Virus record (IMG/VR): IMGVR_UViG_3300029517_000214
Span: 1-26,249 of that record
Direction: 5' to 3' (one strand)
Origin: a virus
Lineage: Duplodnaviria > Heunggongvirae > Uroviricota > Caudoviricetes
Length of the DNA: 26,249 nt
The notes under the pieces are model-generated. The model saw only the letters and a list, made by a program, of their open reading frames with translations. It made no database searches and was not told where the DNA came from. Below, in pieces: positions 1,985 to 24,881 of the stretch (within the stretch, counting starts at the first letter, position 1; each line of letters opens with the position of its first letter). Position numbers and translations under genes: made by a program.

Positions 1985-2012
1985 CCAGCAATACCTGTGA
2001 GGGGAATCCTGG

Positions 2013-6252: not shown

Positions 6253-6270
6253 TCACAAACATGAGGATCC

Positions 6271-6831
6271 TCAGGAAGGAATGGTTATTTCTGTGTGATG
6301 TTCGATATCGCCGTCAGGCCCGTTACCGGGATCGAGATAATCAACATCAATCGCCAGCGTTTGCAGTTCATCCAGACTGTTCAGATCATCCTGCTGGCGG
6401 GTATCGTCTTCAGTCAGCTCGCTGATGACCGAAAAATCGAACTGATAAATCAGCTCATGACGATTCAGATCCAGCAGCGTGCCGCCGTCATAGGTAATCG
6501 GGTTACCGCACGCCTCCGGGTTCCAGCCCAGCAGAGCCTTAAAGAGCATCTGCCGGACATCGTCCACCACATCATACGAGGCAAACTGACCGCGCTCATC
6601 ACGCCCGTTACTCAGTATGACAATCACGGAGAAACCCTCTTTCAGCGCCTGCCAGTAGTCGGTCTGGCTTTTGTTTTCTCCCGGAGAATCATCACCCGGT
6701 ACAACATATGCCGCCGGGAGTTTCAGCTTTCCGACCTCCGGCAGATTTTTGAACTGGGCCGCACCTGCAACCCGGTTTTCAAAATACGGACAGCGGGCAC
6801 GCAGTGCAGCAATAACAGGCGTCAGTTTCAT
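6271..6831 (-). CDS. Putative tail completion/terminator-type protein (head-tail junction module)
   Basis: 186-aa ORF, ATGA-type coupling with the upstream gene at 6828..6831; call is by position between head-tail joining genes and the sheath. Confidence 0.4.
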   Translation of the reverse strand: MKLTPVIAALRARCPYFENRVAGAAQFKNLPEVGKLKLPAAYVVPGDDSPGENKSQTDYWQALKEGFSVIVILSNGRDERGQFASYDVVDDVRQMLFKALLGWNPEACGNPITYDGGTLLDLNRHELIYQFDFSVISELTEDDTRQQDDLNSLDELQTLAIDVDYLDPGNGPDGDIEHHTEITIPS

Positions 6832-7334
6832 CTGTGTCGTCGCTCCGGCTTCAGTGATTTACGCAATTCCCGCGCCAGAAAATAGCGTGTCCAGCTGCGG
6901 TTCTTTTCAAGCGTTTCCATCATGAAGTTATTACGTGGAGCCAGTCGCCAGCCGCTGCCACCGGATGCACCACGATGATGGCTGCGACGACGCTTTGCCC
7001 CTCGCCTCACTCCATAGAACAAAAAAGCCGGATAAAAATCACCAGTGATACGGCGGTTTCCCTCTCCATTACGCTGGTTAGGGGCTATACGTGCCATAAA
7101 ACCAGGGCGATGTTTACTGGCTCTGGGTACCATGTAACCAATCGAACGAGCCAGGCGTCCGGTCTGATAACCGGGGTTTTCACCCGGTGCCGACCGCGCA
7201 CGGCGCATCACCAGCCGACGGGCATCACGCATATGACGCTGACCAATCGTGACAAACGCCCGCCGGACACGGGCGCGGTTAAAGCGCATCTCCGTGGGCT
7301 GCTGAAAATCAACGTGCAAAAAGGAAGTCGCCAT
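6828..7334 (-). CDS. HK97 gp10-like tail component protein
   Basis: Arg-rich basic protein in the head-tail joining block. Start uncertain; an internal Met (MRFNRARV) near 7289 would remove the overlap with the upstream gene. Confidence 0.45.
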   Translation of the reverse strand: MATSFLHVDFQQPTEMRFNRARVRRAFVTIGQRHMRDARRLVMRRARSAPGENPGYQTGRLARSIGYMVPRASKHRPGFMARIAPNQRNGEGNRRITGDFYPAFLFYGVRRGAKRRRSHHRGASGGSGWRLAPRNNFMMETLEKNRSWTRYFLARELRKSLKPERRHR

Positions 7335-7719
7335 TGCTGCCTCCGTGACTCTGCCTACATTCGCCCAGCTCCGTACACTCCAGCAGCAGAAAGCGCCGCG
7401 CTCCGTTCAGATCGCGCTGACGTTTCACCCGGTACACACTGTCACCGCAGACCACCTCATAATCAGCAGTGATCCCCCGGCGGTAACGAATGGTGATGTA
7501 ATGGGTGATGGCGTCTCCGGTCTGCGCGGTTTCCTGCCAGGTGGTGGCACTGGTCTGGATAACCTTCGCCCATGTACTGAACGCAACCGGGTATTGAGGC
7601 TCCACGCCAAAGTTATCTGCGGGCATATCCACCCGCTGGCGGATCAGGACGCGTTTATTCAGTTCACCGGGGTCCGGCAGAATGTAGGTTGCGCTGGTCT
7701 GTGCCTGGCTAATTTTCAT
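7309..7719 (-). CDS. Head closure / head-tail joining protein
   Basis: 136-aa ORF with 4-nt overlap to the gp6-like connector gene; position typical of HK97-type head completion genes. Confidence 0.5.
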   Translation of the reverse strand: MKISQAQTSATYILPDPGELNKRVLIRQRVDMPADNFGVEPQYPVAFSTWAKVIQTSATTWQETAQTGDAITHYITIRYRRGITADYEVVCGDSVYRVKRQRDLNGARRFLLLECTELGECRQSHGGSNGDFLFAR

Positions 7720-8045
7720 TGCGGAAAGTACCTGTACGGGCTGACAAGCCAGCCAAAACTCTGCGGCATGTCGAGTTTCTCCACTTCCGTAACCGACGAG
7801 CGGTTTTCGTAAAAGTGGCTGATAAGCATCAGCATCCCAAGACGAATATCATCCGGCAGGTGCAGCCCGTCCGGATCGCTGTCCGGAATGGATTCATCCG
7901 GTGCATAGAGCTTCCGGTTCAGATACGTTTCCGTCCGCTTTTGCGCCGCACAGGCCAGCAGTTGCAGATGGCGGTCATCGGCATCGAAATCCTCATCCAG
8001 CCGGAGTTGGGCTTTAATCTCTTCCAGTGTCAGAAGCATTCTCAT
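7716..8045 (-). CDS. gp6-like head-tail connector protein
   Basis: N-terminus LTLEEIKAQLRLDEDFDADDRHLQLLACAAQKRTETYLNRKL matches the characteristic gp6-like connector pattern. Confidence 0.65.
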   Translation of the reverse strand: MRMLLTLEEIKAQLRLDEDFDADDRHLQLLACAAQKRTETYLNRKLYAPDESIPDSDPDGLHLPDDIRLGMLMLISHFYENRSSVTEVEKLDMPQSFGWLVSPYRYFPQ

Positions 8046-8241
8046 CCCTCTTTACTGGCCGTGGCTTTTTCTCTTTTGCCGCTTTACTGCTTTTTGCACT
8101 GGTTCCGCGCTCTGCTAACCCGGCCTGAAGTGCAATCTCCTGCACCCGGGCAGGAAGCGCCCCGTCGTCATACTCACCGGCCCTAATAACCTCAACACGC
8201 ATACCGTCCGGTGACCATTTAAGATCTTGTTTCAGGATCAT
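8014..8241 (-). CDS. Small hypothetical head-module protein
   Basis: 75-aa ORF between major capsid and connector genes with a purine-rich RBS-like stretch upstream of ATG 8241. Confidence 0.35.
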   Translation of the reverse strand: MILKQDLKWSPDGMRVEVIRAGEYDDGALPARVQEIALQAGLAERGTSAKSSKAAKEKKPRPVKRDENASDTGRD

Positions 8242-8264
8242 GATTCTTCACCCTTCAGAACAGG

Positions 8265-8282
8265 GGGCGCGGAACCGCGCCC
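8265..8282 (-). other. GC-rich hairpin just downstream of the major capsid gene
   Basis: GGGCGCGG / CCGCGCCC perfect 8-bp inverted repeat separated by AA, 9 nt after the capsid stop; no U-tract follows. Confidence 0.35.
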
Positions 8283-8290
8283 ATGAGCGA

Positions 8291-9496
8291 TTACTTCTCT
8301 GCAATCTTCAGCAGTTTGATGGCCTGCGAATCGACCAGCATTCCGCCGGTGCGCTTGGTGGTATAAAAACCGACAAACGGTTTATTGGTGTACGGGTCAC
8401 GCAGAATGCGGGTGCCGATACGGTCAACGATGGTGTAACCCCGTTTGAAGTTACCAAATGCGATGGCTTTCGCATCCGCAGCAATATCCGGCATCTGTTC
8501 GTTTTCAGCAATACCGTACCCCAGCAGAGAAGAAGGCTGCCCCAGTTCCAGCCCCGGACGCCACAGATAGTTACCCTCGTTGTCTTTCAACAGACGAATG
8601 GCAAACAGGCTGTTGTTGTTCATCATGAACTTCGCGCCAGTGCGGTGTGCCTTACGCAGCGTGTAAATCAGTTTGATAATGGCGTCTGCGGTCACCGCAG
8701 TCGCTTCGCCGGATACAATATGCTGAAGTTTGCCGAACGCCCGGACCTTATCGGTTTCATCAGTGGATTCATACGCCAGGAACCCTTTCGGCTTCTTGGT
8801 GCCATCGCCTGAGGTAAAGGCAATTTCTTCCTGTTCGGCAAATTCGGTTGCCAGCTCGCTGTTGATCCATGCTTCCACGTTGAAAAAGGCATCATCCAGC
8901 ATTTTCTGGGTGGCCTGCGGGTTACCGTAGATTTCCCCCATGAAAGGTTCAATCAGGCCCAGTTTTGAGGTGGCAGTCTGGGAGCGCGCGTCAGTCTCGC
9001 CAACCCATCCGGAAGCCGTGCCGCCCAGATTCACCAGTTTTTTGTAGTCGGAACCACCAATGGTGATCACCGTGGCTTCCTGACGCATCACCACTTCATC
9101 TTTCAGCAAGGTCAGAATGTTGCGATCCAGCGCTTCCGGCACGGCATAGCCGCCGTCTTCATCGGTGCCCACCTGTAATGCCTTGCGCTCCAGATCGCGC
9201 AGACCATCTTCACGGCCTTTACGCAGGAAGCCCACAAACGCTTCTTTATGCTCGGTGGTCAGTTTATTTTGCGCTCCACCAGCCGGACGTTTCAGCTCAA
9301 GCAGCTCTTTTTCAAGGTCGCTTTTGAGATTTTCCAGCTCGCTGAGTTTCCCGTTCAGGGTTTCCACCTGCCCGGCAAGCTTGCCTTTTTCCTGCTCAAT
9401 CGCATCCACGCGCTTGTCGTTCTTTGCTTTGAAGTCGTCAAACTTCTGCTGCAGCTCCTGCGCGACCTGTTCGACATCTTTAATATCAACCGCCAT
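8291..9496 (-). CDS. Major capsid protein, HK97 family
   Basis: 401 aa with coiled-coil N-terminal delta-like region followed by a capsid-fold region; AGGAG RBS 7 nt upstream; directly follows the prohead protease gene. Confidence 0.85.
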   Translation of the reverse strand: MAVDIKDVEQVAQELQQKFDDFKAKNDKRVDAIEQEKGKLAGQVETLNGKLSELENLKSDLEKELLELKRPAGGAQNKLTTEHKEAFVGFLRKGREDGLRDLERKALQVGTDEDGGYAVPEALDRNILTLLKDEVVMRQEATVITIGGSDYKKLVNLGGTASGWVGETDARSQTATSKLGLIEPFMGEIYGNPQATQKMLDDAFFNVEAWINSELATEFAEQEEIAFTSGDGTKKPKGFLAYESTDETDKVRAFGKLQHIVSGEATAVTADAIIKLIYTLRKAHRTGAKFMMNNNSLFAIRLLKDNEGNYLWRPGLELGQPSSLLGYGIAENEQMPDIAADAKAIAFGNFKRGYTIVDRIGTRILRDPYTNKPFVGFYTTKRTGGMLVDSQAIKLLKIAEK

Positions 9497-9510
9497 CGTA
9501 TTTCTCCTGA

Positions 9511-10161
9511 TTAGAAGTTCAGATTTTTCAGTGCATTCAGTGCAGAGCCCACATCCTCAGCGTCGCGCAGGGACAGTGCGCTATAGCCCCCGGCCATGAA
9601 TGCTTTGGCCTGGGTACGGGAGAGTCCGACATCACGCAGGACTCTTTCGATTTTTTTCTGTTCGGGGATTTCCCCGCGGGCCTGTGCGTTCTTGACGTCG
9701 CTGATCCGCGCCTCGTCGTTAGACGGGAACGTCACCAGGCTGACTTCCCAGAGGTCGATTTCTTTCAGCAGAAAGGCTTCTTTGCTCCGGTCGTATTCCC
9801 AGTCTTTCAGGACGTACCCAATAGAAAGGCCGGTTAACGAACCGGCCTTCATGTGTGCATGTGCGCGTTTTGCGAGGGGATCATCATCAATAAGCAACCG
9901 TCCCCTGACGTAAAGCCCGACATCGTCTTCCTTCATTTCGGTGTAAACACCGATGGGTTCATCCATGCGGTGCTGCCAGAGCAGCGCAGGTAACGCTTTT
10001 CTGTCACTCCACGCCCGCAGGGAAGCAGCAAATGCCCCGGACATCACCACATCATCGTGGCTGTCCTTTACACCAAAGACGGAGCCATACCCTTCAAACT
10101 CACCGGAGTCACTGACAGATTTCAGACTCAGCGGTACATCAAGACGTTGTTTCGTCTGCAT
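9511..10161 (-). CDS. Prohead protease (HK97 family)
   Basis: GYGSVFGVKDSHDDVVMSGAF region typical of HK97-type prohead proteases. Start placed at the internal Met 10161, which has an AAGGA RBS; the longest ORF starts at 10197. Confidence 0.8.
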   Translation of the reverse strand: MQTKQRLDVPLSLKSVSDSGEFEGYGSVFGVKDSHDDVVMSGAFAASLRAWSDRKALPALLWQHRMDEPIGVYTEMKEDDVGLYVRGRLLIDDDPLAKRAHAHMKAGSLTGLSIGYVLKDWEYDRSKEAFLLKEIDLWEVSLVTFPSNDEARISDVKNAQARGEIPEQKKIERVLRDVGLSRTQAKAFMAGGYSALSLRDAEDVGSALNALKNLNF

Positions 10162-11380
10162 TGGCGTTATCCTTCTGCTTACCGGCTTTACTGCCATCGG
10201 AGGGCTTCGTGGTCATGTTCATCGGTGTGAGATAGACATCACCACCGGGACGCGGATTCATATCTTCCAGGTCGCGGCAGTCATTGGGAGAGTAAATTCC
10301 CCAGTTGATCCCGGTGGCGTAGGCTTCAAAACGGGACTTCATATCCCCGCGCAGTAACGCCCCGGCGTTAAATTTGGCGTAATAAACGCCCTGCTTACTT
10401 TTTCGTACCAGTCCGGTGTTGATCCGCTGTTCGATGCGGGTCAGATACGGCACCAGTGAATAGTTGATAAATCCCAGCCCCAGCTCTTCGATATTGTTGA
10501 AGGTGGCGCGATCGGTGTTCTGCACCATGTGCAACGGCACCCGGAACAGACGACAGATTTCTTCAAGCTGAAACTTGCGGGTTTCCAGGAACTGGCTGTC
10601 CTCGGCGTTCAGCGCCATCGACTTCCAGTCCAGCCCCATCTCAAGGATCATCGGGCGGTGAGCATTGCCAAGCCCGGTGTGACGCTCCTCAAAATCTTTC
10701 TTCAGGCGCTCATAAGCCTGATCTGACAGCGTCTGCTCTGTACGCAACACACCCGACGTCACCGCGCCATTGCTGAACAGTCTGGCCCCGTGCTCTTCGG
10801 TCGCTGCCGCCAGCGATATTGCCTCGCGGGCATAGGCGATGGGATTCAGCCCCACCAGTCCGTCCAGCGTCAGCGTGCGCACATGCCAGATATCCTCCTG
10901 GCTCAGTACATCCGTGGAGCCATCCGGGAATGTGACCTGATAGACCGGCTCCCAGCTACTGTTAAGCTTCGGTACCACACAGCCGGGATCGACGGGCAGC
11001 AGTTCAGCCACTTCGCCAAATGCTTTCACTTTGTAGGCGTAAAAGTTTCCCCGCAGACACAGACAGGTGACCACCAGCTCCCAGAACTCCTGCGGCGTCA
11101 TATAGCCATTGGGATGCGTGGAGATCAGCTTATGCAGACGTTCGCCAGTGGCTCTCTGCTTCAGGCTGCCGTTCAGGTGATACAGGTTGCAGGGCAACAT
11201 CCCGACCGACTCCGCCAGCACCCTGACACAGGAAAAAACCGCCGTCAGTCGCATGGCCCGCTGGCTGCTGATCTGCTTTCCGGTATAGGTGTCGTAGGAC
11301 AACCCGATAGCATCCGCCAGCTCTGCTGGCGTGGTCACCGGTGCGTCACTTTTTCGTTGAAATAATCCCGAAAAGAACAC
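10139..11380 (-). CDS. Portal protein (HK97 family)
   Basis: 413-aa ORF between terminase large subunit and prohead protease; size and order are canonical. Confidence 0.8.
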   Translation of the reverse strand: MFFSGLFQRKSDAPVTTPAELADAIGLSYDTYTGKQISSQRAMRLTAVFSCVRVLAESVGMLPCNLYHLNGSLKQRATGERLHKLISTHPNGYMTPQEFWELVVTCLCLRGNFYAYKVKAFGEVAELLPVDPGCVVPKLNSSWEPVYQVTFPDGSTDVLSQEDIWHVRTLTLDGLVGLNPIAYAREAISLAAATEEHGARLFSNGAVTSGVLRTEQTLSDQAYERLKKDFEERHTGLGNAHRPMILEMGLDWKSMALNAEDSQFLETRKFQLEEICRLFRVPLHMVQNTDRATFNNIEELGLGFINYSLVPYLTRIEQRINTGLVRKSKQGVYYAKFNAGALLRGDMKSRFEAYATGINWGIYSPNDCRDLEDMNPRPGGDVYLTPMNMTTKPSDGSKAGKQKDNANADETTS

Positions 11381-11562
11381 TATTTACCTCCGCCGACAGA
11401 CGACTGTGTACGGTCGAGATATCGCGCCACCAGCCACGACCAGAACAGGCACAACGCCCCGGCAACAACAAACCCCGCCGGGGGATAAATCAGCCAGGCA
11501 CCATACGCCAGCAAAAGCGCCCCCAGCACGCCCACCAGAGGCGCGAGAATCAGCATGATCAT
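11380..11562 (-). CDS. Small membrane protein
   Basis: 60 aa with two hydrophobic helices; its stop overlaps the portal start (TGATG-type coupling) and it sits 12 nt after the TerL stop. Confidence 0.4.
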
Positions 11563-11573
11563 AATTACCTCAG

Positions 11574-13307
11574 TTAAAGCGAGCGGATCCCATAGGACTC
11601 AATGTGGTCAGACAGCGTGTCTTCTTTCTCGTACAGCATGGCTCTGCCAACCGCCATAATCAGCGCAACTGCACCATCGATTTTGTTTTCCGCCTGCTCT
11701 TTGACGGGCTTCACCACATCATCGTTACCCGGAATGGTTTTGCCGACCACGTTGCCGATACACCAGGTCATGATGGGATTGCCATCATGATGAAAGCGCC
11801 CCGATTCAATTGCCGCTTCCAGCTCTTTCATCGGGTCGGACATGTTGGTGTAGTTCTGAATGATAGTGATGGGGTTCAGGTCTTCATCAGCAAGGTCATG
11901 TGACAACCCGGTCGCCCCGAAGGGGTCGATGGGTGACTCACTGACCGGGCTGATTTTGTTCGCCGCTTTGGCCTCCTCGAGGATGTAGCGATAATCCACC
12001 TCCGCACCATCGGTAACGGTCAGAACGCCCATTTCCACCCATTTCTGAAAGCGTTCGGCTGTCCGTCGATCTTCATTTTTCTCGACGCTGTACACCGTGT
12101 CATACGGTACCCAGAAACGCGGGGCCACACTGTAGTAATGCGTTTTACCGTCAATCTCGCGGGTATAAAGTCGCGCCATACTGTTCATATCCAGCTTACG
12201 CGCCAGGTCAAAGGCCAGAATGCACGGCTGCCCCTCGAACTGCTCAAGGGTCAGTGATTTATCCTCGCAGCTCTGCCAGCTCACCAGATTGAAATACGCC
12301 GAACGCGCCGACACCCAGATATTGAGGTGTTTTGTTTTAAAGACGTTTGCCAGACGGGCGTTATTTTTCGCACGCTGCTGCTGACTTAACAAAAATTCGC
12401 GATAAACCGACACGCCAATATTTGGATTGGCTTTTTCCAGCACCTGCGGGTCGGTCCAGTCATCGCCTTCGTCAACGGTATAGATGATCCCGAACAGTTC
12501 ATCGTTGGGTACCGACCCGTTGAGCATCTCGATAACTTCCCGCCGCTTGTCGTAGCACGGCCCCTCAATGTTGTACCCGGCAGTAGTAATGGCCCACATC
12601 AGTGGCTGACGTCGCGCCCCCATCCCGGTAAGCATCGTGGTGTAAAGCGCATCGGTGGCGTGCTCGTGATATTCATCCACCACCGCACAGTGGGGTGATG
12701 AACCATCACCGGGGTTACCGATCAGCGGTTCAAAACGCGCACCATCCTCCGGACGGTTCATGTTTGAGGCGTTAACCTCAATCCCGAACGCTTCCGTCAG
12801 CATGGGTGTGCGTTTACACATCAGTCTTGCCGGACGAAAGACTTCCCATGCCTGTTTCTCCGTCGTGGCACCGGAATACACTTCCGCGCCGAACTCGTTA
12901 TCACAGGCAAAACAATACAGGGCGACACCGGCAGAGATTGCCGATTTGCCGTTCTTACGGGGGATTTCGGTATACACCTCACGGAAGCGGCGCAGCCGGG
13001 AGCCTTTATTGACCCAGCCAAACGCGCAGCAGATCACAAAGAGCTGCCACAGCTCCAGCGTGATGGGCATCCTCTTAAATGCCCACTCACCCTTGGTGTG
13101 CGGCAACAGCTGAATAAATTTAGCGGCCCGTTCAGCCAGGTCCTTGTCGAAGCGGTAACGAAACGACTTACTTTTTTCCGCCATCAGGTCATCAAGATGC
13201 CGCTGGCAGGCCTGAATCACAAACTGGCAGGCCACAATCTTTCCGCGCACGACATCACGGGCATACTGATTGGCAGCATTTACGTTGGGGTAAGATTTCC
13301 GGCTCAT
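11574..13307 (-). CDS. Terminase large subunit
   Basis: 577 aa with Walker A-like EIPRKNGKS and a C-terminal nuclease region; ATGA overlap with the small subunit gene. Confidence 0.9.
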
Positions 13308-13807
13308 GATTCGATGATTTTCAGAAACGGGTTAGTGGCTTTCTTCTTCCCCGCCAGGCCAATCAGACGCTGGCGGCTGCTGGGGTCGAGTCCGAGCATT
13401 GCCCCCGTACTGCTCATCTCGGACTCCTGTTCTTTTTTGGCGGTCAGCTCCGGATTTTTGACCATACCGCCCATTGCACCGGTGATGGTGTTGCCCTGTC
13501 TGGCAATATTTTTCACGGCACGTCGCCAGAACTCATAGGCCACACACCACCGCTCAAGCACTGCGAGGTCAGTCACGCACAGCAGGCCCTGACCGCAGAG
13601 TTCTTTAGTTGTCAGTTGCCACATGATCGTGGCGAGAGGGAGATCTTCTTCAGCGAACCACTCCGGTGGCTCAACACCTTTGATGGGCGTAAAAACAGGT
13701 TCATCTTTATTCAGGGCTCGCTTGCCGGGGTTTCCGGCCAGCGCCTTGCGCGCCGTTGGCTTGGGGCGACGCCCGGAACGCCCCGCCGTTCCAGCCATAT
13801 GCGGCAC
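13304..13807 (-). CDS. Terminase small subunit (P27 family)
   Basis: 167-aa basic N-terminus ([22 protein letters not shown]) typical of P27-family small subunits, immediately upstream of TerL. Confidence 0.75.
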
Positions 13808-13924
13808 TCCTGGTTAAATTTCATTTTTCGCGGGTATAAAAAAACGATGGGGCGGGCAGTCCGGAAGGCGCGCGGTTGCAAAGATTCGACCTCCCCCTCC
13901 CCTGGCTGATGATGACATCAATTC

Positions 13925-14275
13925 TCACCTGAACCGCTCACGCGCGGTCTTCACTGCGTGACACGACCAGCACAGACTCTCAAGGTTGCTGTCTTCATCA
14001 GTGCCGCCGTGAGCCTTCGCCTTGAGGTGGTCCACGCAGGACGCTTGCTTCACAACTCCCTGCCGAAGATGGTTCTGACATAACCCTTTGTCGCGCTTTA
14101 GTATCCGCTCCCGGATGACTTCCCACTTTGTTCCATATCCGCGCTGCTGCCGTGATTGACCTGGCTTGTAGGATTTCCAGCCCTCACCTTTATGATTTTC
14201 GCAGTAGCCTGACGGATCTGTAGTGGTAGAACGGCAGCCGCGAACACGGCAGGCTTTTGGGATTCGTGGCGGCAT
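13925..14275 (-). CDS. HNH endonuclease (terminase-associated)
   Basis: Cys-rich N-terminus and C-terminal CVDHLKAKAHGGTDEDSNLESLCWSCHAVKT HNH motif; located just upstream of terS as in HK97-like packaging modules. Confidence 0.8.
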   Translation of the reverse strand: MPPRIPKACRVRGCRSTTTDPSGYCENHKGEGWKSYKPGQSRQQRGYGTKWEVIRERILKRDKGLCQNHLRQGVVKQASCVDHLKAKAHGGTDEDSNLESLCWSCHAVKTARERFR

Positions 14276-14373
14276 ATGGAAAACTCCGGATAGAAATTAT
14301 GATAGAAACCATGTTATTTAATAGCGTTTCAATCCGTTAAGTAACAATGGTTATGCTCGTAAAGGACGCCCTG

Positions 14374-14763
14374 ATGACAAATAACTACATGAATGATTTC
14401 CTCAAATACTCACAGCCATATGTTCCAAAGGACTACAATCTTGCAAATGAATTTCATAGACGCCTTATATGCTGGATAAATGATTTTCACCGTGAACTTG
14501 AAGAAGAGTATGAGGTAGGAGGACAACTAGCTAGCTTTGGTAAAAACATTGAATTTCATTTCACAGACATAAGCTACTGGAATCCATCATTAATTTCTTT
14601 CATTGGTACTCTGGAGGATGGCAGTCCTGTAGAACTTGTTCAGCATGTATCTCAAATAAATGTCCTGCTAATCCGAAAAAAACGCTTATGCTTAGAGACC
14701 CCTAAAAGACCGATTGGGTTTGCTGATTGGGGTGAATACGACTCCTTTAAAGGAGATAATTGA
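14374..14763 (+). CDS. Hypothetical protein, opposite-strand moron at the bor position (possibly YbcV/YdfO-like)
   Basis: AT-rich plus-strand ORF between the spanin genes and the packaging module. Start assigned to the Met with an AAGGA RBS 8 nt upstream (MTNNYMNDF...); the longest ORF starts at 14347. Family guess is from memory of position and size only. Confidence 0.55.
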   Translation: MTNNYMNDFLKYSQPYVPKDYNLANEFHRRLICWINDFHRELEEEYEVGGQLASFGKNIEFHFTDISYWNPSLISFIGTLEDGSPVELVQHVSQINVLLIRKKRLCLETPKRPIGFADWGEYDSFKGDN

Positions 14764-14770
14764 TAACTTT

Positions 14771-14795
14771 ATTGCGGGCGATAATTGCCCGCAAT
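14771..14795. terminator. Hairpin between convergent genes (possible bidirectional terminator)
   Basis: ATTGCGGGC / GCCCGCAAT 9-bp stem with 7-nt loop, between the stop of 14374..14763 (+) and the stop of 14806..15024 (-); flanking U-tract is weak. Confidence 0.4.
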
Positions 14796-14805
14796 CTCGT
14801 TTGCC

Positions 14806-15024
14806 TCATAACTGGCTAATACAGTTGCGCTGTACTGCTTTGTTATGTGCCAGAATATCCCGCTTCGTAAGCTTATCCAGCACTTCAATGTCCTGACCTG
14901 TGAGGTAGATGATTCTTACCCAGTCACAGGCCGTGTCCGTTACTTCAGGTTTTGCGGGTAAAGTTTTCGCGCAACTCACGGTCAACATCGTCATCAGGTA
15001 GATGATTAACAGTCTGCTGTACAT
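14806..15024 (-). CDS. Putative outer-membrane spanin lipoprotein (o-spanin)
   Basis: 72 aa with signal peptide and lipobox-like LTVSC plus two further cysteines; overlaps the upstream gene by 80 nt in another frame. Confidence 0.45.
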   Translation of the reverse strand: MYSRLLIIYLMTMLTVSCAKTLPAKPEVTDTACDWVRIIYLTGQDIEVLDKLTKRDILAHNKAVQRNCISQL

Positions 15025-15214
15025 CCCAGGCTCCTTTTGTTGTCTCTACCCTACGTTCTGCAACGGCTTCAGTAGCAGCTGCACGTTCTTCAGTGCGTTG
15101 CTGGTCCGCTTTTGTTTCTGCGATACTTGTACCGCGTGATTTACCCAGACCAAAAGCACCTGCAATTGCAGCCAGCACAGCAACAACCAGGCCGATAATC
15201 ATTTCAAGTCCCAT
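14945..15214 (-). CDS. Putative inner-membrane spanin (i-spanin)
   Basis: N-terminal TM helix (MGLEMIIGLVVAVLAAIAGAF) then a charged Ala/Glu/Arg-rich segment; start at 15214 with GAGG RBS, just after the endolysin stop. Confidence 0.45.
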   Translation of the reverse strand: MGLEMIIGLVVAVLAAIAGAFGLGKSRGTSIAETKADQQRTEERAAATEAVAERRVETTKGAWDVQQTVNHLPDDDVDRELRENFTRKT

Positions 15215-15221
15215 AGTGACC

Positions 15222-15836
15222 TCATACCAGTGCGGCTTTTGCTTTGGCGTAACGTTCACGGCGGTCTTTAATGCCATTCTGTCCGCCGTTAATAATCTGC
15301 GTTACACGTTCCACGTCACCCGAATACATCAAGCAACCGCGTAACGTGAAGTACCACGCCGCCGAACGGGCCGCATGTCGCTCCTGCGTTAGCAATTCTG
15401 GTGTATTGACAAGGTCAAGTTTCAGCGCCGCACCACATTTGGTGTAGTTCTCACGGCCAGTAATTTGAAGCAGGCCACGACCGCGATATTTCCAGCCGTC
15501 ACCCTGGCTGTTATTCCCCATGCGGTCACCGTAAACCAGATTGGCTATTTGCGGCTGGTGAGCGACCTGTTTACCATCGACACGCCCCAGCATTTCGCAC
15601 TGGTACGGCGTCAGACGCTTACCAAAGGTTTTCTTCAGCCCTTCAACCGAGTAGTTAAAACTCTCTGCCAGCGAAGTAAATCCTGCAGACTCATGCCCGA
15701 CTTGTGCAATGAACATGGCCTGATCATTAACTGCTGTAATACCAAACTCTTTCATTGCCGCATCAATGTGCGGAAACCAGCGTGCAGAAACATCGGCGCT
15801 GATACCAGCCGCCTGCTGAAATTGTGATTGGTTCAT
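15222..15836 (-). CDS. Endolysin, probably glycoside hydrolase family 19 (chitinase-like)
   Basis: 204 aa directly downstream of two membrane-protein genes; FIAQVGHESAGF resembles the GH19 catalytic-region motif. Family assignment is from memory. Confidence 0.7.
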   Translation of the reverse strand: MNQSQFQQAAGISADVSARWFPHIDAAMKEFGITAVNDQAMFIAQVGHESAGFTSLAESFNYSVEGLKKTFGKRLTPYQCEMLGRVDGKQVAHQPQIANLVYGDRMGNNSQGDGWKYRGRGLLQITGRENYTKCGAALKLDLVNTPELLTQERHAARSAAWYFTLRGCLMYSGDVERVTQIINGGQNGIKDRRERYAKAKAALV

Positions 15837-16117
15837 TAGTGCCTCAGATGGTCAACCAGACGTGCCACATTGCCTCTGACGGCGACCAGCACGGACAGGA
15901 AAATAATGTTGGCCACGATAGTGGCCCACGATGAATAAGGGTAGATACCGCACAGATACGCCAGCGGTACGGCGCTATAAATGACCGTAAGCAGCCACGC
16001 TAAGCGAGATATCCACGGTCGATGTCTGGAGTCGCCACGACGATAAAACATCAGAGTAATAACAACACAAGCACATAACAGCGCATTTATAGTTGCTGTC
16101 GGGTCATTTAGCTCCAC
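15836..16117 (-). CDS. Holin-like small membrane protein (holin or antiholin)
   Basis: 93 aa with about three predicted TM helices, immediately upstream of the endolysin gene. Confidence 0.5.
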   Translation of the reverse strand: MELNDPTATINALLCACVVITLMFYRRGDSRHRPWISRLAWLLTVIYSAVPLAYLCGIYPYSSWATIVANIIFLSVLVAVRGNVARLVDHLRH

Positions 16118-16490
16118 CTGAACCTCCCCGGCGCGTTATGAGCGCCACCAGCGAGCCGATATCCTGATTATTCAGGAACGTCAGGATTTTAACGGCTAAA
16201 GCAGAGACGATTACGGCACCAATAGCATCCAGAGGTTTATCACTGTATCCGGTCAAGTTCGCCAGCTTGGAGCCAACCAACCCAGAGCAAAGGATCCCGG
16301 CAATATATGACACGATAAAATATGCTAGTCGGCGCGATGCACTCAGATCTGCTGCTGTTGCTATGTAGAATACAGCCCCTGCAAATGCGCCAAATACAAC
16401 GCCGTAATCAGTTCCGGTCAGCAGTCCATAAATACTAGCGCCCGTTAGGGCTCCACCAGCTAACCCTGTGCCGGAAATCGGATCGGACAT
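16104..16490 (-). CDS. Putative holin
   Basis: Gly/Ala-rich hydrophobic helices with a charged C-terminus (RRGGSGGAK); start taken at ATG 16490 with GAGGTGG RBS rather than the longer ORF start at 16556. Confidence 0.5.
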   Translation of the reverse strand: MSDPISGTGLAGGALTGASIYGLLTGTDYGVVFGAFAGAVFYIATAADLSASRRLAYFIVSYIAGILCSGLVGSKLANLTGYSDKPLDAIGAVIVSALAVKILTFLNNQDIGSLVALITRRGGSGGAK

Positions 16491-16598
16491 TAGCCACCTC
16501 TTATTGCAGTGAGTCCTCTCAGAAATAGAAATGAGAGGAATAAAAAAGGCCACCATTTGGCAGCCATAGAATTGATGTAATTATAACTAATTCATTAA

Positions 16599-17405
16599 CT
16601 ATTTCTTAATGATGCTATTTAACATTTCTAATGCAAAAAGCAACATGGAGCTAATAAAATACAATATAACCGCACTGGCAATCGCTCCAATTATAGCCTG
16701 GACACTCCAGTGAAAGTAATTTTTACCATTAATAACAAACTTAACACTAGGAAACAAAAAGTCGATAAGCTTAATTATTAATGGAATAGCAAAGCTCCAT
16801 AAGTTCGAAAACAAAATAAAGATACAAATAAATGATAAAGCAAATGCACCATCGATTGATAGTTTTGGCGCCAGTTTTGAGGCTGTCCATAAGCTAAGCA
16901 AAAAGCCAACTGTCACACCTGAAATCTGGATACTTAACATAGTCCAAGCTGTTCTAAAAAATCTAAATTTATTTTTGCACTTGTTAAGTAAATCCTGAAT
17001 CGTAATCCATAACGAGTCAACCCACTCATTATCTTCCGATGCTACAATCATTGTGCTGCTATTTGAATTCCTCTCATCAATTCGTAGCTCCATCCAAGAT
17101 CCATTCATCCTGTTAGACTGTCGACTTTGATAAGTTTCAATAGTAAAAATTATTTGATCAATCCTAGTGGCCTGTCTAAAGTATTTCACAAGCTCACCGA
17201 TAGAATCAACTTTATACCCCTTACCATCGAACAAAATAAAAAAAACACATTGAGCACAAACTTCCCTACTTTCCTTTTGAGCTTGCTCATTCATTTTAAC
17301 GCAGCGTTCGACAATTGCCGTGCTTAAGCTAATCAAGCTATCTTCATTTATAGAAACACCTGAAATATTCTTGCTTCTGTAAAAATATGACACTTTCGAT
17401 TCCAC
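16599..17405 (-). CDS. Hypothetical membrane protein: ~165-aa soluble N-terminal domain plus ~3 C-terminal TM helices
   Basis: 268-aa ORF in a strongly AT-rich island between Q/tR' and the holin; I recognise no family. Confidence 0.6.
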   Translation of the reverse strand: MESKVSYFYRSKNISGVSINEDSLISLSTAIVERCVKMNEQAQKESREVCAQCVFFILFDGKGYKVDSIGELVKYFRQATRIDQIIFTIETYQSRQSNRMNGSWMELRIDERNSNSSTMIVASEDNEWVDSLWITIQDLLNKCKNKFRFFRTAWTMLSIQISGVTVGFLLSLWTASKLAPKLSIDGAFALSFICIFILFSNLWSFAIPLIIKLIDFLFPSVKFVINGKNYFHWSVQAIIGAIASAVILYFISSMLLFALEMLNSIIKK

Positions 17406-18086: not shown

Positions 18087-18839
18087 TTATCTCGTCACCC
18101 TTCTCAATTGTGCTTCAGCGTAAGCTTCCTCCTGCCAGCACTTTGTAACCAGTTTATCAATGACATCTGCATATCCTTTGTACCACTGATAATCCGTCAG
18201 GTCTGGTACCAGCTTCTGGACATGAAGCCGCGCCAGTGTGGTTGGTAAACGGCTAAACCGGTTTCCACTGCAACGCCCACAAATCTTATAAACAGGCGTG
18301 CCATGAAGCCGGGTTCTTTTTTCATCCAGGACAATACCTTTACCCTTACACCCTCTGCACGCGGTGCTGACTTCTCCCTTACCATGGCAATGCTGACATA
18401 GTTCCTTCACCCACTCTTCCTTGATAACAGATTCCCCGCTTCTGGAGTGTTTCACCACTTCGCGCAATACATTATGAAATCCAGTACCAGCACAATGCTC
18501 ACAGCGAGCCTTACTTGCCGCAGACCTGGAATAATCAGCAAAGGCAAAATTCACAAGGTAAGGGATGATCTGTAACCGGGTTTCTTCACTCAATTTGTTC
18601 AATGTCGGGTTATCCAGTGCCATCGCGTAATTGAGCAGACCTTCAATCGCAAACTGAGGATCCTGAACACCAACTTTTGCCAGGAATAAGGCAAACCCAA
18701 GCGGTGCTTTCGACTGCACCATCCCCTGCGCAGCCATCACATCCGTAATCGTTAAACCACCTGAGCCTGTCGCCGGTGCGTCATCGCTCAATTTTGGAGA
18801 TTTTGGGGAGTAATATTTTGGTAAGGCTTCAAGGTTCAT
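18087..18839 (-). CDS. Late-gene antitermination protein Q
   Basis: Cys-rich zinc-binding segments (CEHCAGTG, CQHCHGKGE, CRGCKGKG, CGRCSG). Start at MNLEALPKYY with GGAGAA RBS, which avoids overlap with the upstream gene. Positioned upstream of the lysis genes. Confidence 0.75.
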   Translation of the reverse strand: MNLEALPKYYSPKSPKLSDDAPATGSGGLTITDVMAAQGMVQSKAPLGFALFLAKVGVQDPQFAIEGLLNYAMALDNPTLNKLSEETRLQIIPYLVNFAFADYSRSAASKARCEHCAGTGFHNVLREVVKHSRSGESVIKEEWVKELCQHCHGKGEVSTACRGCKGKGIVLDEKRTRLHGTPVYKICGRCSGNRFSRLPTTLARLHVQKLVPDLTDYQWYKGYADVIDKLVTKCWQEEAYAEAQLRRVTR

Positions 18840-18852: not shown

Positions 18853-19838
18853 TTACGCCAGCACGCCAATTGCCAGCGCACGATCGATAAAACGAAATAT
18901 CAGCTCCAACTGGGAGCCATACTTTTCTTCAAATGCCACGGTATCCGCATGCAGATCGTCGTGATGCTTTCTGCACAAAGGCAACACAAAGAGGTCATGC
19001 GCTTTTGTACCCATTCCCCCCTGACCGTCGCCTATCAGGTGGTGGGGATCATCAGCAAGCTTTCCACAACATGCACACGGCTGTGTCTTAACCCAGCGCG
19101 TGTACTTTTCATTAGCCCAGCGGCGACGTTTTGGGCGTAACATAAAAGACTCCGGCGACTCCGGATCCACTTTCAGCGCCAGCACCTTTTTCGCCTTATC
19201 CTGGATGATGCTGGTGGCAGGAACCGAAGGCACAAGGTCACTTTCCCGGGTGACAGACGGCACAACAGGCTTCGGTAATCTCAGTGCCTTACGGGCTGCA
19301 CTTTCCGGTAAGGCATCCGCCAGGTCATTACGAACCAGCCACCAGCACAGTTCCGGCATTGTCACAACGTGACTATCATCAAAACCGAGATCCCGACGCA
19401 CAACAGACAATACCCAGCGGGCACAGTTATCCGTTGCCATTGATTCCAGCCGTTCCGTGAACTGATCGCGCAACTGGTTATCGCAGTGCCAGCACAGACG
19501 GATTGCGCCCGGCGCGTGTCGCATTGTGGTCATGTTCTCGCTGTGCCAGTCGGANNNNNNNNNNNNNNNNNNNNNNNNNAGCTTTCAAGACATTCCACCC
19601 CACCAGCACGACGAATCACTGCCTCATTACGGAACACGGCCCGAACGACAGGATCATCCGCCAGCGGTTGTGATGCCGCGGGAACGGCACCACTGGCGAA
19701 AGATGAATAATGCTCCGGCTCAGGCTCCAGCAGTACACGCCCCTGCATAAACAGGGGCATCAGCTCTGAACCTGGTCTGAACAATACGATCCCCATACGC
19801 GGGGCAATTTCAGGGGTCAGTAGTGCTCTCACGGTCAC
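18853..19838 (-). CDS. DUF968-like (YdfU-like) protein, interrupted by an assembly gap
   Basis: Two ORF pieces (19530..19838 and 18853..19533) flank the N-run. The C-terminal part has a Cys/His-rich region (QPCACCGKLADDPHHL...CRKHHDDLH). Position directly upstream of Q matches ydfU next to quuQ in Qin. True length and frame across the gap are unknown. Confidence 0.5.
19556..19579. other. Assembly gap (24 N)
   Basis: Run of n characters in the sequence. Confidence 0.99.
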
Positions 19839-19839
19839 C

Positions 19840-20637
19840 TCAATGAACGGTATCGAGCAGCTTTAACAGCTCAGGGAATCGGGATTCGAAAAAGTGCGGC
19901 TGCGTCTCGCGCGGATTTGCGGGACTGGTGATGTTCTTGCCGAACATGCAGCCTTTCGCTGTCAGCGACCAGAATTTTTTGATGTTGTTAATCGCGGTAC
20001 GGCTGTATCGTTCGCGCTGTTCGACGATCCCCAGCTTCACCATCTGGTGATATGCCTGATTAGCCGTAAGGCGGATACCATACTGCTTCAGCAGTGCACT
20101 CAATGATAGCGTAGGGCGGCTTGAGCCATCGAGTGCATCAGCAGGAGCATCAATGGCATAGCGCGGTGCCAGATTCGGTAAGCCAACAGCCTCCTGAAGC
20201 TTCTGACAGGCACCAAGCACTGAAGAGTTAGACAGGTTTAACTCCCTGCGCATAAAGTCCAGCAGAATCACACCAGCCTGCATCTTGTCAGCAGCCTGCC
20301 CGGATAATTTTTCCGGTGCGCTGGTTACCATATCGAAAGTACGGATCACCTTCAGATGGAATGACGGGCTGATCCACATTGCATAGGCATACACCAGTTC
20401 TTTGCAGACATACGTCCCCTGGTTATTTCCGCCACGAATAACGTTAACTGGCTCTATATTGACCGAGTTGCAAATCTGCAACTCGCTTATTAAACGTTCA
20501 GTTTGCTCATTGCGGAGCCAGAATGCAGGCTTATGCTTATCCAGAGAACCGGCAGCCCTGTGCAGATCGTTCAGGCTGTAACGACCATAAGCATCACGAC
20601 GAACTTCAATACCATCAATGACCATCAGATTATTCAT
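19840..20637 (-). CDS. KilA-N domain protein
   Basis: N-terminus IDGIEVRRDAYGRYSLNDLHRAAG...KPAFWLRNEQTERLISEL fits the KilA-N domain; GAGGAG RBS upstream of ATG 20637. Confidence 0.7.
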   Translation of the reverse strand: MNNLMVIDGIEVRRDAYGRYSLNDLHRAAGSLDKHKPAFWLRNEQTERLISELQICNSVNIEPVNVIRGGNNQGTYVCKELVYAYAMWISPSFHLKVIRTFDMVTSAPEKLSGQAADKMQAGVILLDFMRRELNLSNSSVLGACQKLQEAVGLPNLAPRYAIDAPADALDGSSRPTLSLSALLKQYGIRLTANQAYHQMVKLGIVEQRERYSRTAINNIKKFWSLTAKGCMFGKNITSPANPRETQPHFFESRFPELLKLLDTVH

Positions 20638-20656
20638 ACTTCGTTTCTCCTCTTAA

Positions 20657-20905
20657 TCAGGCGGCTGCACCCGCCGTTTTCTCGTACTTACTGATAGTGA
20701 TCTCGACCTTCCCTTCCGGGATAACCGGTCCCCACTCCACCAGCATTCTTTTCACCTGACTGTCGTCTTCCCACACCCCCGCGTGGGTCAGGGCGTCAAA
20801 CAGCGCCTTGTTATAGTTGTCCAGATCGCGGATCCTGTTAGCGTGGATGCAATGGCAGTGTGGCACGTTGATTGCCAGTACATCCCTACAGAAAGCCTGA
20901 TTGAG
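20657..20905 (-). pseudogene. rusA: rusA (Holliday junction resolvase) 5'-truncated remnant
   Basis: C-terminal ~70 residues (ANRIRDLDNYNKALFDALTHAGVWEDDSQV...) align to the RusA C-terminal half. The frame opens only 13 codons upstream of a GTG with no RBS; about 40 N-terminal residues are absent. Confidence 0.55.
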
Positions 20906-21304
20906 TCAGATTGCACTGCGTATGTGGCCTACAAAAAAGGTAGCTGGAACGGCAACGATGTTTACTGGCTTCAACACGGTGGATTGCCAACAGATGACTT
21001 CAGTAAAGCGACCATCTTTAGCGTCGCCAACAAAAACGAACCAGGAATAGTTTGGTTGCCATTTTCCATTGCTGATGCAGCAAAGCGCAGGACGTTCAAT
21101 ATCAATAACTTTAACCGCAGAACAATGGTTCAGGGCGCAGGTTTGGTCATGCCTGACTGGTTGAAAGAGCAGAACAGAAGAAAGAAGTCGCGAAGCGGGA
21201 AGGTGCGTTGGAATTGTCCGCATTGCGGAAAAATCTCCTGGCAGTACAGCCCATATGATTTTGAAGGCTGTAGTGATTACAACTGTGAAGGATGGCGAGA
21301 ATGA
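20852..21304 (+). CDS. Hypothetical early protein with C-terminal Cys-rich zinc-ribbon-like tail; start uncertain
   Basis: Plus-strand ORF open from 20783 (GTG), overlapping the rusA remnant antisense; first ATG at 20852, alternative GTG at 20924. C-terminus NCPHCGKISWQYSPYDFEGCSDYNCEGW. Confidence 0.3.
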   Translation: MAVWHVDCQYIPTESLIESDCTAYVAYKKGSWNGNDVYWLQHGGLPTDDFSKATIFSVANKNEPGIVWLPFSIADAAKRRTFNINNFNRRTMVQGAGLVMPDWLKEQNRRKKSRSGKVRWNCPHCGKISWQYSPYDFEGCSDYNCEGWRE

Positions 21305-21897
21305 CAATTGACTATCAGGCACTGCGTGATGCGGCAGAAGCAATAAAAATAGCAGCCACACCACAAAAATTGCTGGCATTTCGTATGAAGGTCACACCTC
21401 AGGTTGTGCTGGCACTACTGGATGAACGGGAAAGGAACCAGCAATACATCAAATCCCGCGACCAGGAGAACGAGGAAATTGCGCTAACGGTAGGGAAGCT
21501 GCGCGTTGATCTGGAAGGCAAAGACAGCAAAATAGCCAATCTTACCGCCGAACGCGATGCTCTTCGTGAAGGTGAGATGGGCGACGCTAGGCATAGCAAC
21601 ACACGGGCCGCAGCTGATATCTACTTCCAACTGGTCGAGGAGTGCGAAATTCCTGCTGGCGGATCTCTGGTCGAGTACGTTGACGATATGCGCGAGAAGC
21701 TGGAAGCCGCAGAGAAGCGCATTGCTGAGCTGGAGTTGCGGGAGGTTGTGCTTCCGCAATGCTATAGCATGTTGCATCGCGTCGATTTTGACGAGCCTTA
21801 CCACACTGAAATGGTTTACAGGCAGCATCAGGTTCTTGAGGCACTGCACAACGCTGGAATAAACGTCACCGAAGCATGTAAAGGAGAGGCATCATGA
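21301..21897 (+). CDS. Ea22-like coiled-coil early protein
   Basis: Start MTIDYQALRDAAEAIK with AAGGA RBS and ATGA overlap with the upstream gene; coiled-coil segments such as LEAAEKRIAELELRE. Family call is from memory. Confidence 0.45.
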   Translation: MTIDYQALRDAAEAIKIAATPQKLLAFRMKVTPQVVLALLDERERNQQYIKSRDQENEEIALTVGKLRVDLEGKDSKIANLTAERDALREGEMGDARHSNTRAAADIYFQLVEECEIPAGGSLVEYVDDMREKLEAAEKRIAELELREVVLPQCYSMLHRVDFDEPYHTEMVYRQHQVLEALHNAGINVTEACKGEAS

Positions 21898-22379
21898 GCA
21901 CTATCACAAGAGAATGGCTGCAGCAGGCTATCAACGATTATGAAAGCGTTCGTGATGAGCTTCCTTTCGGGCTTGATGATTACCAGGGGAATATCCTGGC
22001 TGCCCTGCGTATTGCACTGGCATCGCTGGAAGCAGAGCCGGTGGCGTGGAAGGTAACATTCACGCAAATTGACCGTGAATATAACACGTTCACTGGTATG
22101 TATTCTGACAAAGCAGAAGTCGAACGGTGGGTGCGGCTGCATAAAGCATGTAATTTTCGGGCAGATATAACACCGCTTTATACCGCCCAGCAAGTGCCGG
22201 TAACTCCGGATGGTTGGGTTATGGTGACGAAGGAGTTAACCCCGGAAATGATGAGAGCCGTTCAGATTAGAAGTGAGCTTGGAGGGTATGCCACTTCCAA
22301 TCTATCTGGTGCATACAATATGTTTTCTGAGTTCTGGAATGTTGCTGTCTCAGCTGCGCCTAAGATGGATGATTTATGA
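21894..22379 (+). CDS. Hypothetical early-left protein
   Basis: 161-aa ORF with AGGAG RBS, ATGA coupling to the upstream gene and coupling to the downstream Lar-like gene; no recognisable motif. Confidence 0.5.
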   Translation: MSTITREWLQQAINDYESVRDELPFGLDDYQGNILAALRIALASLEAEPVAWKVTFTQIDREYNTFTGMYSDKAEVERWVRLHKACNFRADITPLYTAQQVPVTPDGWVMVTKELTPEMMRAVQIRSELGGYATSNLSGAYNMFSEFWNVAVSAAPKMDDL

Positions 22380-22678
22380 ATCTATATCGCTGCCCATTCT
22401 GTGGTTCCACTGTGCTTAACATCGGATACTCATTCAGTATCAGAGGGAAAATGCGCTATGTGTCATGCAAATGTGGTGCCCAAGGACCAGAAAAACGAAC
22501 TAAATCTGAAGCGATTTCTTCATGGAATAGTCGAATGAAAGTATGGGTTTATGATCCAGAAACCATATTAAACGCTGAAGAGCGCAGGAGAACGGAAGTC
22601 TATATTCATAACCTTAATGAAGATGGATTTACACCAGTGCTTGTAAAGGCTACTCCGCAGGAGGTTAACCATGGCTAA
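22376..22678 (+). CDS. Lar-family restriction alleviation protein
   Basis: MNLYRCPFCGS...YVSCKCGAQGPEKRTKSEAISSWNSR matches the Lar-family zinc-ribbon pattern (CPFCG ... CxCGAxGP ... AIxxWN); carries a ~40-aa C-terminal extension. Confidence 0.7.
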   Translation: MNLYRCPFCGSTVLNIGYSFSIRGKMRYVSCKCGAQGPEKRTKSEAISSWNSRMKVWVYDPETILNAEERRRTEVYIHNLNEDGFTPVLVKATPQEVNHG

Positions 22679-22778
22679 CCTGCAACTTGCCGTCAAAGGT
22701 GAATAACAATCCTCGCACTCGCGGGGATTTCTTTTATCTGAACTCGCTACGGCGAGTTTTGTTTTATGGAGATGAAAA

Positions 22779-22946
22779 ATGCACTTCCGAGTCACAGGTG
22801 AATGGAATGGAGAACCATTCAACAGAGTTATCGAAGCGGAGAACATCAATGACTGCTATGACCACTGGATGATATGGGCGCAGATAGCACATGCAGACAT
22901 AACCAATATTCGATTTGAAGAACTGAAAGAACACCAAGCCGCCTGA
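22779..22946 (+). CDS. Small hypothetical protein (55 aa, below the ORF-track cutoff)
   Basis: Hand-translated MHFRVTGEWNGEPFNRVIEAENINDCYDHWMIWAQIAHADITNIRFEELKEHQAA with GGAG RBS 7 nt upstream; its stop overlaps the next ATG. Confidence 0.35.
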   Translation: MHFRVTGEWNGEPFNRVIEAENINDCYDHWMIWAQIAHADITNIRFEELKEHQAA

Positions 22947-22972
22947 TGGCGGTTTTTTATTGGAGACAAGAA

Positions 22973-23317
22973 ATGTCAGATTTGGCTATGAAGATTTTGA
23001 AATGGCAATCGACTGGCGATGTCGGCATCAGTAGCGCAACTCTTGCCTCAATCGCGTGTGGACTGAAAAAGAATATCTATGGTCATCACTTCGGCGCTCC
23101 ACATGACGCAGCCGATTTCCGACGATGCGTTGCACTTGTTGAGCAGATTCCAGAAATCAGAGATTCATTCGACAAGGTTGCAAAGCGCGTTCCGACATTC
23201 AAAGGCATCCTCAACGAATGGGATTCCCTCGTTGCTCTGTTGAAGTCTGAAATGAAGATACACGGAAACAAAGCACCAGAGACTTACAGAAGAATTAGCG
23301 AGTTACGCAAGGACTAA
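22973..23317 (+). CDS. Hypothetical protein
   Basis: Start taken at MSDLAMKILK with GGAG RBS rather than the ORF-track start at 22946; no recognisable motif. Confidence 0.45.
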   Translation: MSDLAMKILKWQSTGDVGISSATLASIACGLKKNIYGHHFGAPHDAADFRRCVALVEQIPEIRDSFDKVAKRVPTFKGILNEWDSLVALLKSEMKIHGNKAPETYRRISELRKD

Positions 23318-24805: not shown

Positions 24806-24881
24806 TGGTGCCGATAATAGGAGTCGAACCTACGACCTTCGCATTACGAATGCGCTGCTCTACCAACTGAGCTATATCGGC
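24806..24881 (-). tRNA. thrW: tRNA-Thr (anticodon CGT), thrW-type
   Basis: Hand-folded cloverleaf: acceptor GCCGATA/TATCGGC, D arm GCTC/GAGC, anticodon stem GCGCA/TGCGC with loop TTCGTAA, T arm GTAGG/CCTAT, encoded CCA. Confidence 0.9.

Follow-up and report, generated by a model that had tools for sequence, protein, structure and literature searches.

A defective lambdoid prophage at thrW whose regulatory and replication core was probably lost by recombination at a TA dinucleotide in rusA

How does a lambdoid prophage come to carry a late block and an integration block that meet head to head, with none of the immunity and replication genes that intact relatives hold between them? We use ‘the window’ for the whole 26,249-nt stretch of DNA analysed here (IMG/VR record IMGVR_UViG_3300029517_000214), which is a prophage adjoining thrW and is read on the minus strand from position 1 to ~20.8 kb and on the plus strand from ~20.84 kb (Table 1). 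An earlier, sequence-only reading of the window had placed a truncated rusA gene at this strand switch, where the minus-strand block would abut a plus-strand early-left block running to xis-int, and had seen there an internal deletion that left a cryptic prophage. Our analysis confirmed this layout, with thrW and proA following the integrase gene.

Table 1. Coordinates of the features of the window and of the junction between its two arms.
Feature	Position	Strand	Basis or remark
SfV-like late region: tail, head, portal, terminase, HNH, GH19 endolysin, moron gene, two holins	1..17405	-	
Q, late-gene antiterminator, intact	18087..18839	-	Pfam Antiterm E = 5e-53; L001 annotation: antitermination protein
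DUF968 / HNH-like gene	18853..19842	-	Pfam DUF968
KilA-N domain gene, intact	19840..20637	-	Pfam KilA-N E = 2e-26; present in L001 too
rusA 3' remnant, 184 nt (last 60 codons + stop)	20657..20840	-	Pfam RusA positions 77-123/124, E = 1.3e-11
GGATAACCGG, inverted 10-bp copy of the hot-spot motif	20719..20728	.	105 nt from junction
Deletion junction	20835..20840	.	Five-way alignment; left-arm similarity stops at 20840, right-arm similarity starts at 20835
phrog_2457-family early-left gene, 5'-truncated	20841..21304	+	PHROG 2457 profile positions 63-220/222, E = 1.2e-81
Remaining early-left genes	21292..23317	+	Gene order as in L005 and L094
Ead/Ea22	21292/21301-21897	+	
Lar	22376-22678	+	
Excisionase	23407-23754	+	
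Tyrosine integrase, thrW-specific, mEp213/HK446/SfX/HS type	23631-24791	+	
tRNA-Thr (CGU), thrW	24806..24881	-	ARAGORN
proA	24996-26249		

The late region continues past the left edge of the window, which begins within tail genes. From position 1 to 20840 the window matches, at ~100% identity, a prophage that eight complete genomes share, E. coli AMSHJX01 among them, a base-by-base comparison of the left arm with the AMSHJX01-type prophage giving four SNPs in 13.9 kb; the same arm is 96% identical to phage SfV, with 93-97% nucleotide identity across the matched blocks. The ~100% identity to the prophage in the eight genomes indicates that the deletion event was recent. The claim that the Q-lysis-packaging-head-tail region is apparently intact held up, as this region is essentially identical to that of an apparently complete prophage in other strains and, on sequence comparison, appears as intact as in the prophages of the eight genomes. 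The exception is the DUF968 gene, which carries a run of 25 N (19555-19579) where relatives such as L001 have 35 nt and which thus looks frameshifted; the N run is probably masking or a gap and not a mutation. Two further features of this arm are recorded here as observations in their own right. A pair of minus-strand genes (16599-17405 and 17603-17872) is inserted between the holins and Q and is conserved in related prophages, the first gene encoding a predicted membrane protein of 268 aa with no Pfam match and the second an 89-aa protein with a sub-threshold match to DUF2513, and the two are possibly moron or defence cargo. A DUF6173 gene lies on the opposite strand (14347-14763, plus) between the HNH/terminase genes and the lysis genes, and is missing from some relatives (KSC1031, VREC0761).

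The right arm and its int have their best matches in HS, mEp213, HK446 and SfX, the same type also occurring in mEp043 and HK75, and a blastn comparison of window positions 20841-24791 with SfV gave no match. Its first gene is a remnant. When intact, the phrog_2457 gene is 645 nt long (L004 11826-12470; L009 19826-20470); here its first 175 nt are gone, a loss of 58 codons, and what remains matches the 3' part of the intact L004 and L009 genes at 99.8% identity. The other early-left products are a 161-aa protein, encoded between Ead/Ea22 and Lar, and proteins of 55 aa and 123 aa, encoded after Lar. The arm then ends as a prophage attachment site does, int being followed by a 46-nt att core and thrW and then by proA. 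The att core is the 3' 46 nt of thrW (24806-24851), and position 24851 is also where the identity of the window to contig L094 stops. In L094 an AraC-family island (4195-6034) follows the 46-nt att core and replaces the 5' part of thrW and proA, which indicates that islands are stacked at thrW in another strain.

At the strand switch, the rusA remnant corresponds by alignment to the 3'-terminal 184 nt of the 390-nt, 129-codon rusA gene of the relatives (L001 12268-12451; SfV orf43) and also matches PHROG RusA families. By this alignment 69 of the 129 codons are absent and not ~40, as had been estimated from the sequence alone; the fragment had also been drawn too long, up to 20930, since 20841-20930 is the antisense of the second 5'-truncated gene, that of the phrog_2457 family. 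The remnant does not qualify as a functional gene for the RusA Holliday-junction resolvase (PF05866), because its domain is not full-length and, as had been noted before, its native start codon is missing. An in-frame GTG at 20864-20866 gives rise to a 69-aa ORF (20657-20866) that crosses the junction and exists by chance; no Shine-Dalgarno sequence was seen upstream of this GTG when the sequence was read by eye, and database look-ups found neither this ORF nor a 150-aa junction ORF on record. The sequence-only reading had proposed alignment to SfV-like or lambdoid relatives as the means of locating the deletion endpoints, and such an alignment placed them at 20840 for the left arm and 20835 for the right arm, the latter corresponding to nt 176 of the phrog_2457 gene. 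The hexanucleotide CTGTTA at the junction is imperfectly common to the two parents (CTGTTA or CGGTTA in rusA and CTGATA in the partner, that is, CTG(T/A)TA), and the exact microhomology between them is the TA at 20839-20840. The junction is thus formed by two 5'-truncated, promoter-less genes placed head to head, and a promoter scan returned only weak matches near it. Between the rusA stop codon and the KilA-N start there is a sigma-70-like match on the minus strand (20629-20656; TTAAGA, a 16-nt spacer and AATAAT; 9/12), and this is the sole promoter candidate that remained ahead of KilA-N, DUF968 and Q once the deletion had occurred.

Pfam and PHROGs scans covered every ORF from Q to int and yielded DUF968, KilA-N, the RusA fragment, phrog_2457, Ead/Ea22, Lar, the excisionase, the integrase and three unassigned proteins. 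Within the window, no repressor, cro, cII, N or O/P replication gene was detected between Q and int, which is what the sequence-only reading had reported, and this closer search brought to light no overlooked repressor or replication module. Intact relatives hold N, cI, cro, cII, O-like and P/DnaB-like genes within the corresponding interval. In the SfV-like relatives (the thrW prophages KSC1031, VREC0761 and L7_E1373, the icd prophage AMSHJX01 and SfV itself) the order upstream of rusA is a LexA-family small regulator, an optional dam methylase, PerC, an O-like HTH replication gene, DUF4222, ymfL, cro and a cI-type repressor. In the right-arm relatives (E. coli HS, VTB97584v and contig L092, which are HS-type and P22-like) the genes upstream of phrog_2457 are, nearest first, DUF2737, an anti-RecBCD gene, ssb and a Rad52/Erf/RecT-type recombinase and, farther out, N and cI, then cro, cII, O and a DnaB-like helicase. 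Judged from these relatives, the lost interval would be at least ~10 kb.

We consider it likely, with a probability of roughly 0.8, that the element is a deletion-crippled lambdoid prophage at thrW, made by illegitimate recombination at a TA microhomology and both non-inducible and non-replicating. Structural, lysis and late-regulation genes are present in it, and modules essential for the lytic cycle are missing from the window. In a single illegitimate (non-homologous) event, the TA at the centre of the rusA sequence CCGGT-TA-TCCGG would have been joined to a TA within a phrog_2457-family gene, and all that lay between both TAs (what else the early-left operon contained, PL, N, the repressor gene, cro and cII, the replication genes, and the nin genes as far as the middle of rusA) would have been lost. 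Going by lambdoid biology, an element from which PR, PL, the repressor, N and the origin/initiator are all absent should be neither induced nor replicated. Because no notable promoter lies upstream of Q, this gene and the late operon would be without known transcriptional input and are expected to be silent, and the sole way to activate the late genes would be a related superinfecting phage that supplies Q in trans. The retained xis and int would have lost their normal control, and repressor-based immunity would have gone with the repressor. The earlier view of an internal deletion that produced a cryptic prophage is thus borne out as regards the loss of immunity, replication and most nin genes, and stops short of a single SfV-like parent. 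Likewise, the statement that the element has no way to regulate or replicate itself holds for the visible sequence; the window starts inside tail genes, and modules missing from it may sit farther left, beyond its edge.

The question of the parent arises because the two arms belong to different phage lineages, the left being SfV-like and ~100% identical to an icd-site prophage that has its own intE/xisE, and the right being that of an HS/mEp213-type thrW lambdoid. No intact parent linking both arms was found among 5,426 complete E. coli genomes, 50,697 phage records and species-representative genomes, and the parent may have been a single phage of mosaic make-up, which is quite possible, or a pair of elements that lay side by side or interacted. 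A tentative alternative, to which we give clearly less weight, is that the junction joined two separate elements, one an SfV-like phage, whether already resident, in tandem or newly arriving, and the other a thrW prophage or remnant of HS/mEp213 type already in place, which would imply a much larger deleted interval, or a replacement. The different lineages of the arms and the near-perfect match of the left arm to a prophage with an integration module of its own argue for this, as does the fact that intact SfV-like prophages at thrW, unlike the window, bear SfV-type early-left genes and int; stacked elements at thrW also exist, as in FDAARGOS_1077, where the 5' half of rusA adjoins a truncated HS-type int, and in the island of L094. 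However, lambdoid mosaicism makes a single hybrid parent equally plausible, and directly oriented icd and thrW prophages could recombine only with deletion of ~0.9 Mb of chromosome, which would be expected to be lethal. A tandem intermediate was not found in these searches.

Four independent assemblies, L005 (metagenome ERZ1303571), L006 (metagenome ERZ28596318), L094 (ERZ27272400) and L095 (ERR1190717), carry the same junction at 99.9-100% identity, and its presence in four other samples means that it is not an assembly artefact. L094 is 100% identical to the window across 20658-24851; L094 and L095 are short contigs that end inside the rusA remnant and are uninformative on anything farther left. 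None of the 5,426 complete E. coli genomes has the junction, and the exact junction was not found in species-representative genomes either. L005 and L006 are reduced remnants without Q and late genes, in which a second rearrangement (L005 8082-8087) starts from codon 20 of KilA-N (window-equivalent 20578) and leads into a truncated tail-fibre-assembly gene and then helicase, AbiTii and retron Ec48, a block that adjoins ssrA in other strains (e.g. AR436); this second rearrangement indicates that the lineage is still decaying. These carriers bear on the idea that a resident thrW prophage received, within its early-left gene, a circular, whole SfV-like genome by reciprocal TA exchange, an event that would place the repressor and replication genes left of the window, past the tail genes. 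Such an insertion is compatible with the natural occurrence of both product classes of TA breakage (rusA 3' half or 5' half kept), with the virtual identity of the left arm to a circulating prophage and with a left end that the window does not reach. Nevertheless, we regard it as improbable, because the carriers that extend leftward, L005 and L006, are the reduced remnants just described and because the reciprocal junction, in which the 5' part of phrog_2457 would be followed by TATCCGG, is absent among the six right-side partners found. Finally, an assembly chimera of two prophages, towards which the N run inside the window and the lack of complete genomes with the junction might point, is barely credible given that independent assemblies from different assemblers agree so closely and that an overlap of 2-6 nt is too short for misassembly.

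Comparable losses of the immunity region, again leaving genes head to head, are seen in other thrW prophages, with junctions ninG'/'ssb in ETEC1730 and PerC'/'hyp in strain 300490. The thrW prophages of these two strains (L002 and L031) and those of FDAARGOS_1077 (L019) and CFS3273 (L032) are multiply deleted remnants. Decay at the thrW locus is convergent, and there are two independent core deletions among those remnants.

One of the two endpoints defined by alignment to relatives, that in rusA, is not random, and in this respect the earlier notion of the deletion endpoint needs amending. Window positions 20839-20840 (L001 12450-12451) mark a nucleotide-precise breakpoint, CCGGT-TA-TCCGG, in SfV-type rusA, and at least 16 distinct rearrangements or partners share this hot-spot TA in other genomes and viral contigs (L002, L013-L015, L019-L030, L058 and L085-L090). 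In ETEC1730, which among E. coli matches the junction region best, the rusA remnant stops at the same base and abuts the first 72 nt of a lambda-type ninI. Pattern scans from the rusA side detected partners exactly at GGTTA| of two types in gut metagenome contigs and of seven types in 10 IMG/VR contigs, the two metagenome types recurring among the seven, and several of these partners fall at differing codons of the upstream replication gene. Some products retain an open reading frame: an in-frame Rep(1-78)-RusA(70-129) fusion of 138 aa (L013 838-1254) arose at the hot spot, an in-frame Rha-RusA fusion in E. coli Res13 has its break 3 nt from the hot-spot TA, and in L020 (6877-7869) RefSeq annotates an in-frame Rha-RusA ORF of 330 aa as an ordinary protein. 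The reciprocal half, |TATCCGG, in which the 5' part of rusA is kept, has six different partners in IMG/VR contigs, and one of these, a truncated integrase, recurs as the partner in FDAARGOS_1077. When complete genomes were queried with 120 nt centred on the site, 38 records matched only in part, vs 1 and 5 for the flanking 120-nt rusA windows, and four control anchors ending in TA (three in rusA and an 8-mer in Q) gave SNP alleles only and no junctions.

The site itself is an imperfect palindrome, CCGGt-TA-tCCGG, and can also be read as a direct repeat, ATCCGGT-T-ATCCGGT. The TA is kept in both product classes and lies at the crossover in all seven partners whose intact sequence is visible (7/7), so that the site is dyad-symmetric with a fixed 2-bp crossover common to both partners. 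The TA of the inverted copy, GGATAACCGG, is a rarer breakpoint in two other genomes (L031 4000/4001; L091 6201). By inspection, the partner flanks share the TA and scattered similarity only, with no conserved partner site, and no recombinase or element was detected at the hot-spot junctions. A literature search for the hot-spot motif gave no match. In a protein search with full-length RusA, the top 120 matches were mostly full-length, contig-end partials or fusions near residue 108-113, and none of these 120 bears on the mid-gene breakpoint. The SNPs are too few for their pattern to show whether the rusA remnant has a separate ancestry.

Several candidate explanations of the hot spot were set aside. 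It does not resemble a pseudo-cos site, as the ends of SfV show no similarity to it, and it does not look like a transposon end, as the window, L001, L011, SfV and L007 have no inverted terminal copy. The 117-bp segment between the motif copies is not a MITE-like insertion, since it encodes RusA residues, including RDLDN, that are presumably conserved in K-12 RusA, nor is it an invertible switch, no inverted state having been found in IMG/VR. The 8-mer GGTTATCC is not a sufficient signal, because its copy in Q (window 18608) shows a SNP allele only and no junctions. Int-mediated recombination at a secondary site was rejected, since by inspection the thrW core has no more than TCC..TTATC in common with the site, and the partners are not att-like. 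A type IIS cut of the GGATC(4/5) kind would, we assume, hit the correct bond at the hot spot; the window contains 57 GGATC sites, hence such a cut explains nothing alone. Pin-type invertases are present in related prophages, and we take the hot-spot motif to be unlike their crossover sites.

The rusA TA (20839-20840) is possibly a site of sequence-specific breakage or strand exchange by a putative nuclease, recombinase or pseudo-site transposase, a suggestion that we hold only tentatively. The TA may be cut in a staggered, sequence-specific manner or undergo strand exchange, or a replication fork may stall at the quasi-palindrome and then switch template. Were the suggestion correct, such an activity would repeatedly produce deletions, gene fusions and module swaps and would be ‘grounding’ SfV-like E. 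coli prophages, the crippling deletion in the window being one of its products.

Decay of prophages by deletion is a general pattern according to PMC6379469, in which Casjens 2003 and Bobay 2014 are cited, and the element described here resembles the cryptic or ‘grounded’ prophages DLP12, Rac, Qin, e14 and CP4-6 of E. coli K-12 (CP4-6 also being at thrW) in that it is a deleted remnant which has kept some late, nin and Q-type genes and which, from its gene content, should be unable to complete a lytic cycle. In contrast to the K-12 prophages, the loss here was one clean event that struck the regulatory and replication core precisely; the ~21 kb of late genes that it spared remain essentially identical to their counterparts in a seemingly complete prophage, and by this identity the event looks very recent. 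The element also differs from the ‘grounding’ model, in which excision functions are struck: here the repressor was removed, and with it repressor-based immunity. In comparison with SfV, KSC1031 and VREC0761, the late genes, Q, DUF968 (orf45), KilA-N (orf44) and rusA (orf43) are 93-97% identical at the nucleotide level and in the same order, and the integration site is the same. Unlike SfV, the window is without orf33 through orf42 (cI, cro, replication, dam and others), and its early-left genes, xis and int are of the mEp213/HK446/SfX/HS type; gtr genes, if any, would fall outside the window. The element thus appears SfV-like in its late, Q and nin genes and not in its early-left genes and int, and would not simply be an SfV prophage with a hole. 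Overall, the element is a defective prophage of an ordinary kind that stands out only by the cleanness and recency of the loss, and its main use is as a very recent, sharply defined case in which the regulatory and replication core has been removed and ~21 kb of late genes left untouched.

The hot spot, for its part, can be compared with two kinds of system. Like the sites of serine-recombinase crossovers and of TA-target transposons (IS630/Tc1-mariner), it is an imperfect palindrome around a 2-bp TA crossover in which the TA is kept; unlike them, it has no conserved partner site, no recombinase at the junction, no terminal inverted repeat and no inverted state of the segment between the motif copies, and the resemblance may serve as a lead only. 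In phage lambda, the nin deletions (nin5) and illegitimate recombination at short homologies among lambdoid phages provide examples of spontaneous deletions between the replication genes and Q whose junctions fall at very short homologies. Among the hot-spot partners, several lie in the replication gene and give nin-like deletions of the same kind. In marked contrast to the nin deletions, many independent events at the hot spot share one endpoint to the nucleotide, a feature that, to our knowledge, has not been described for nin deletions. If one short motif in a common prophage gene does underlie many such events, prophage inactivation and lambdoid mosaicism would be partly site-directed and not random.
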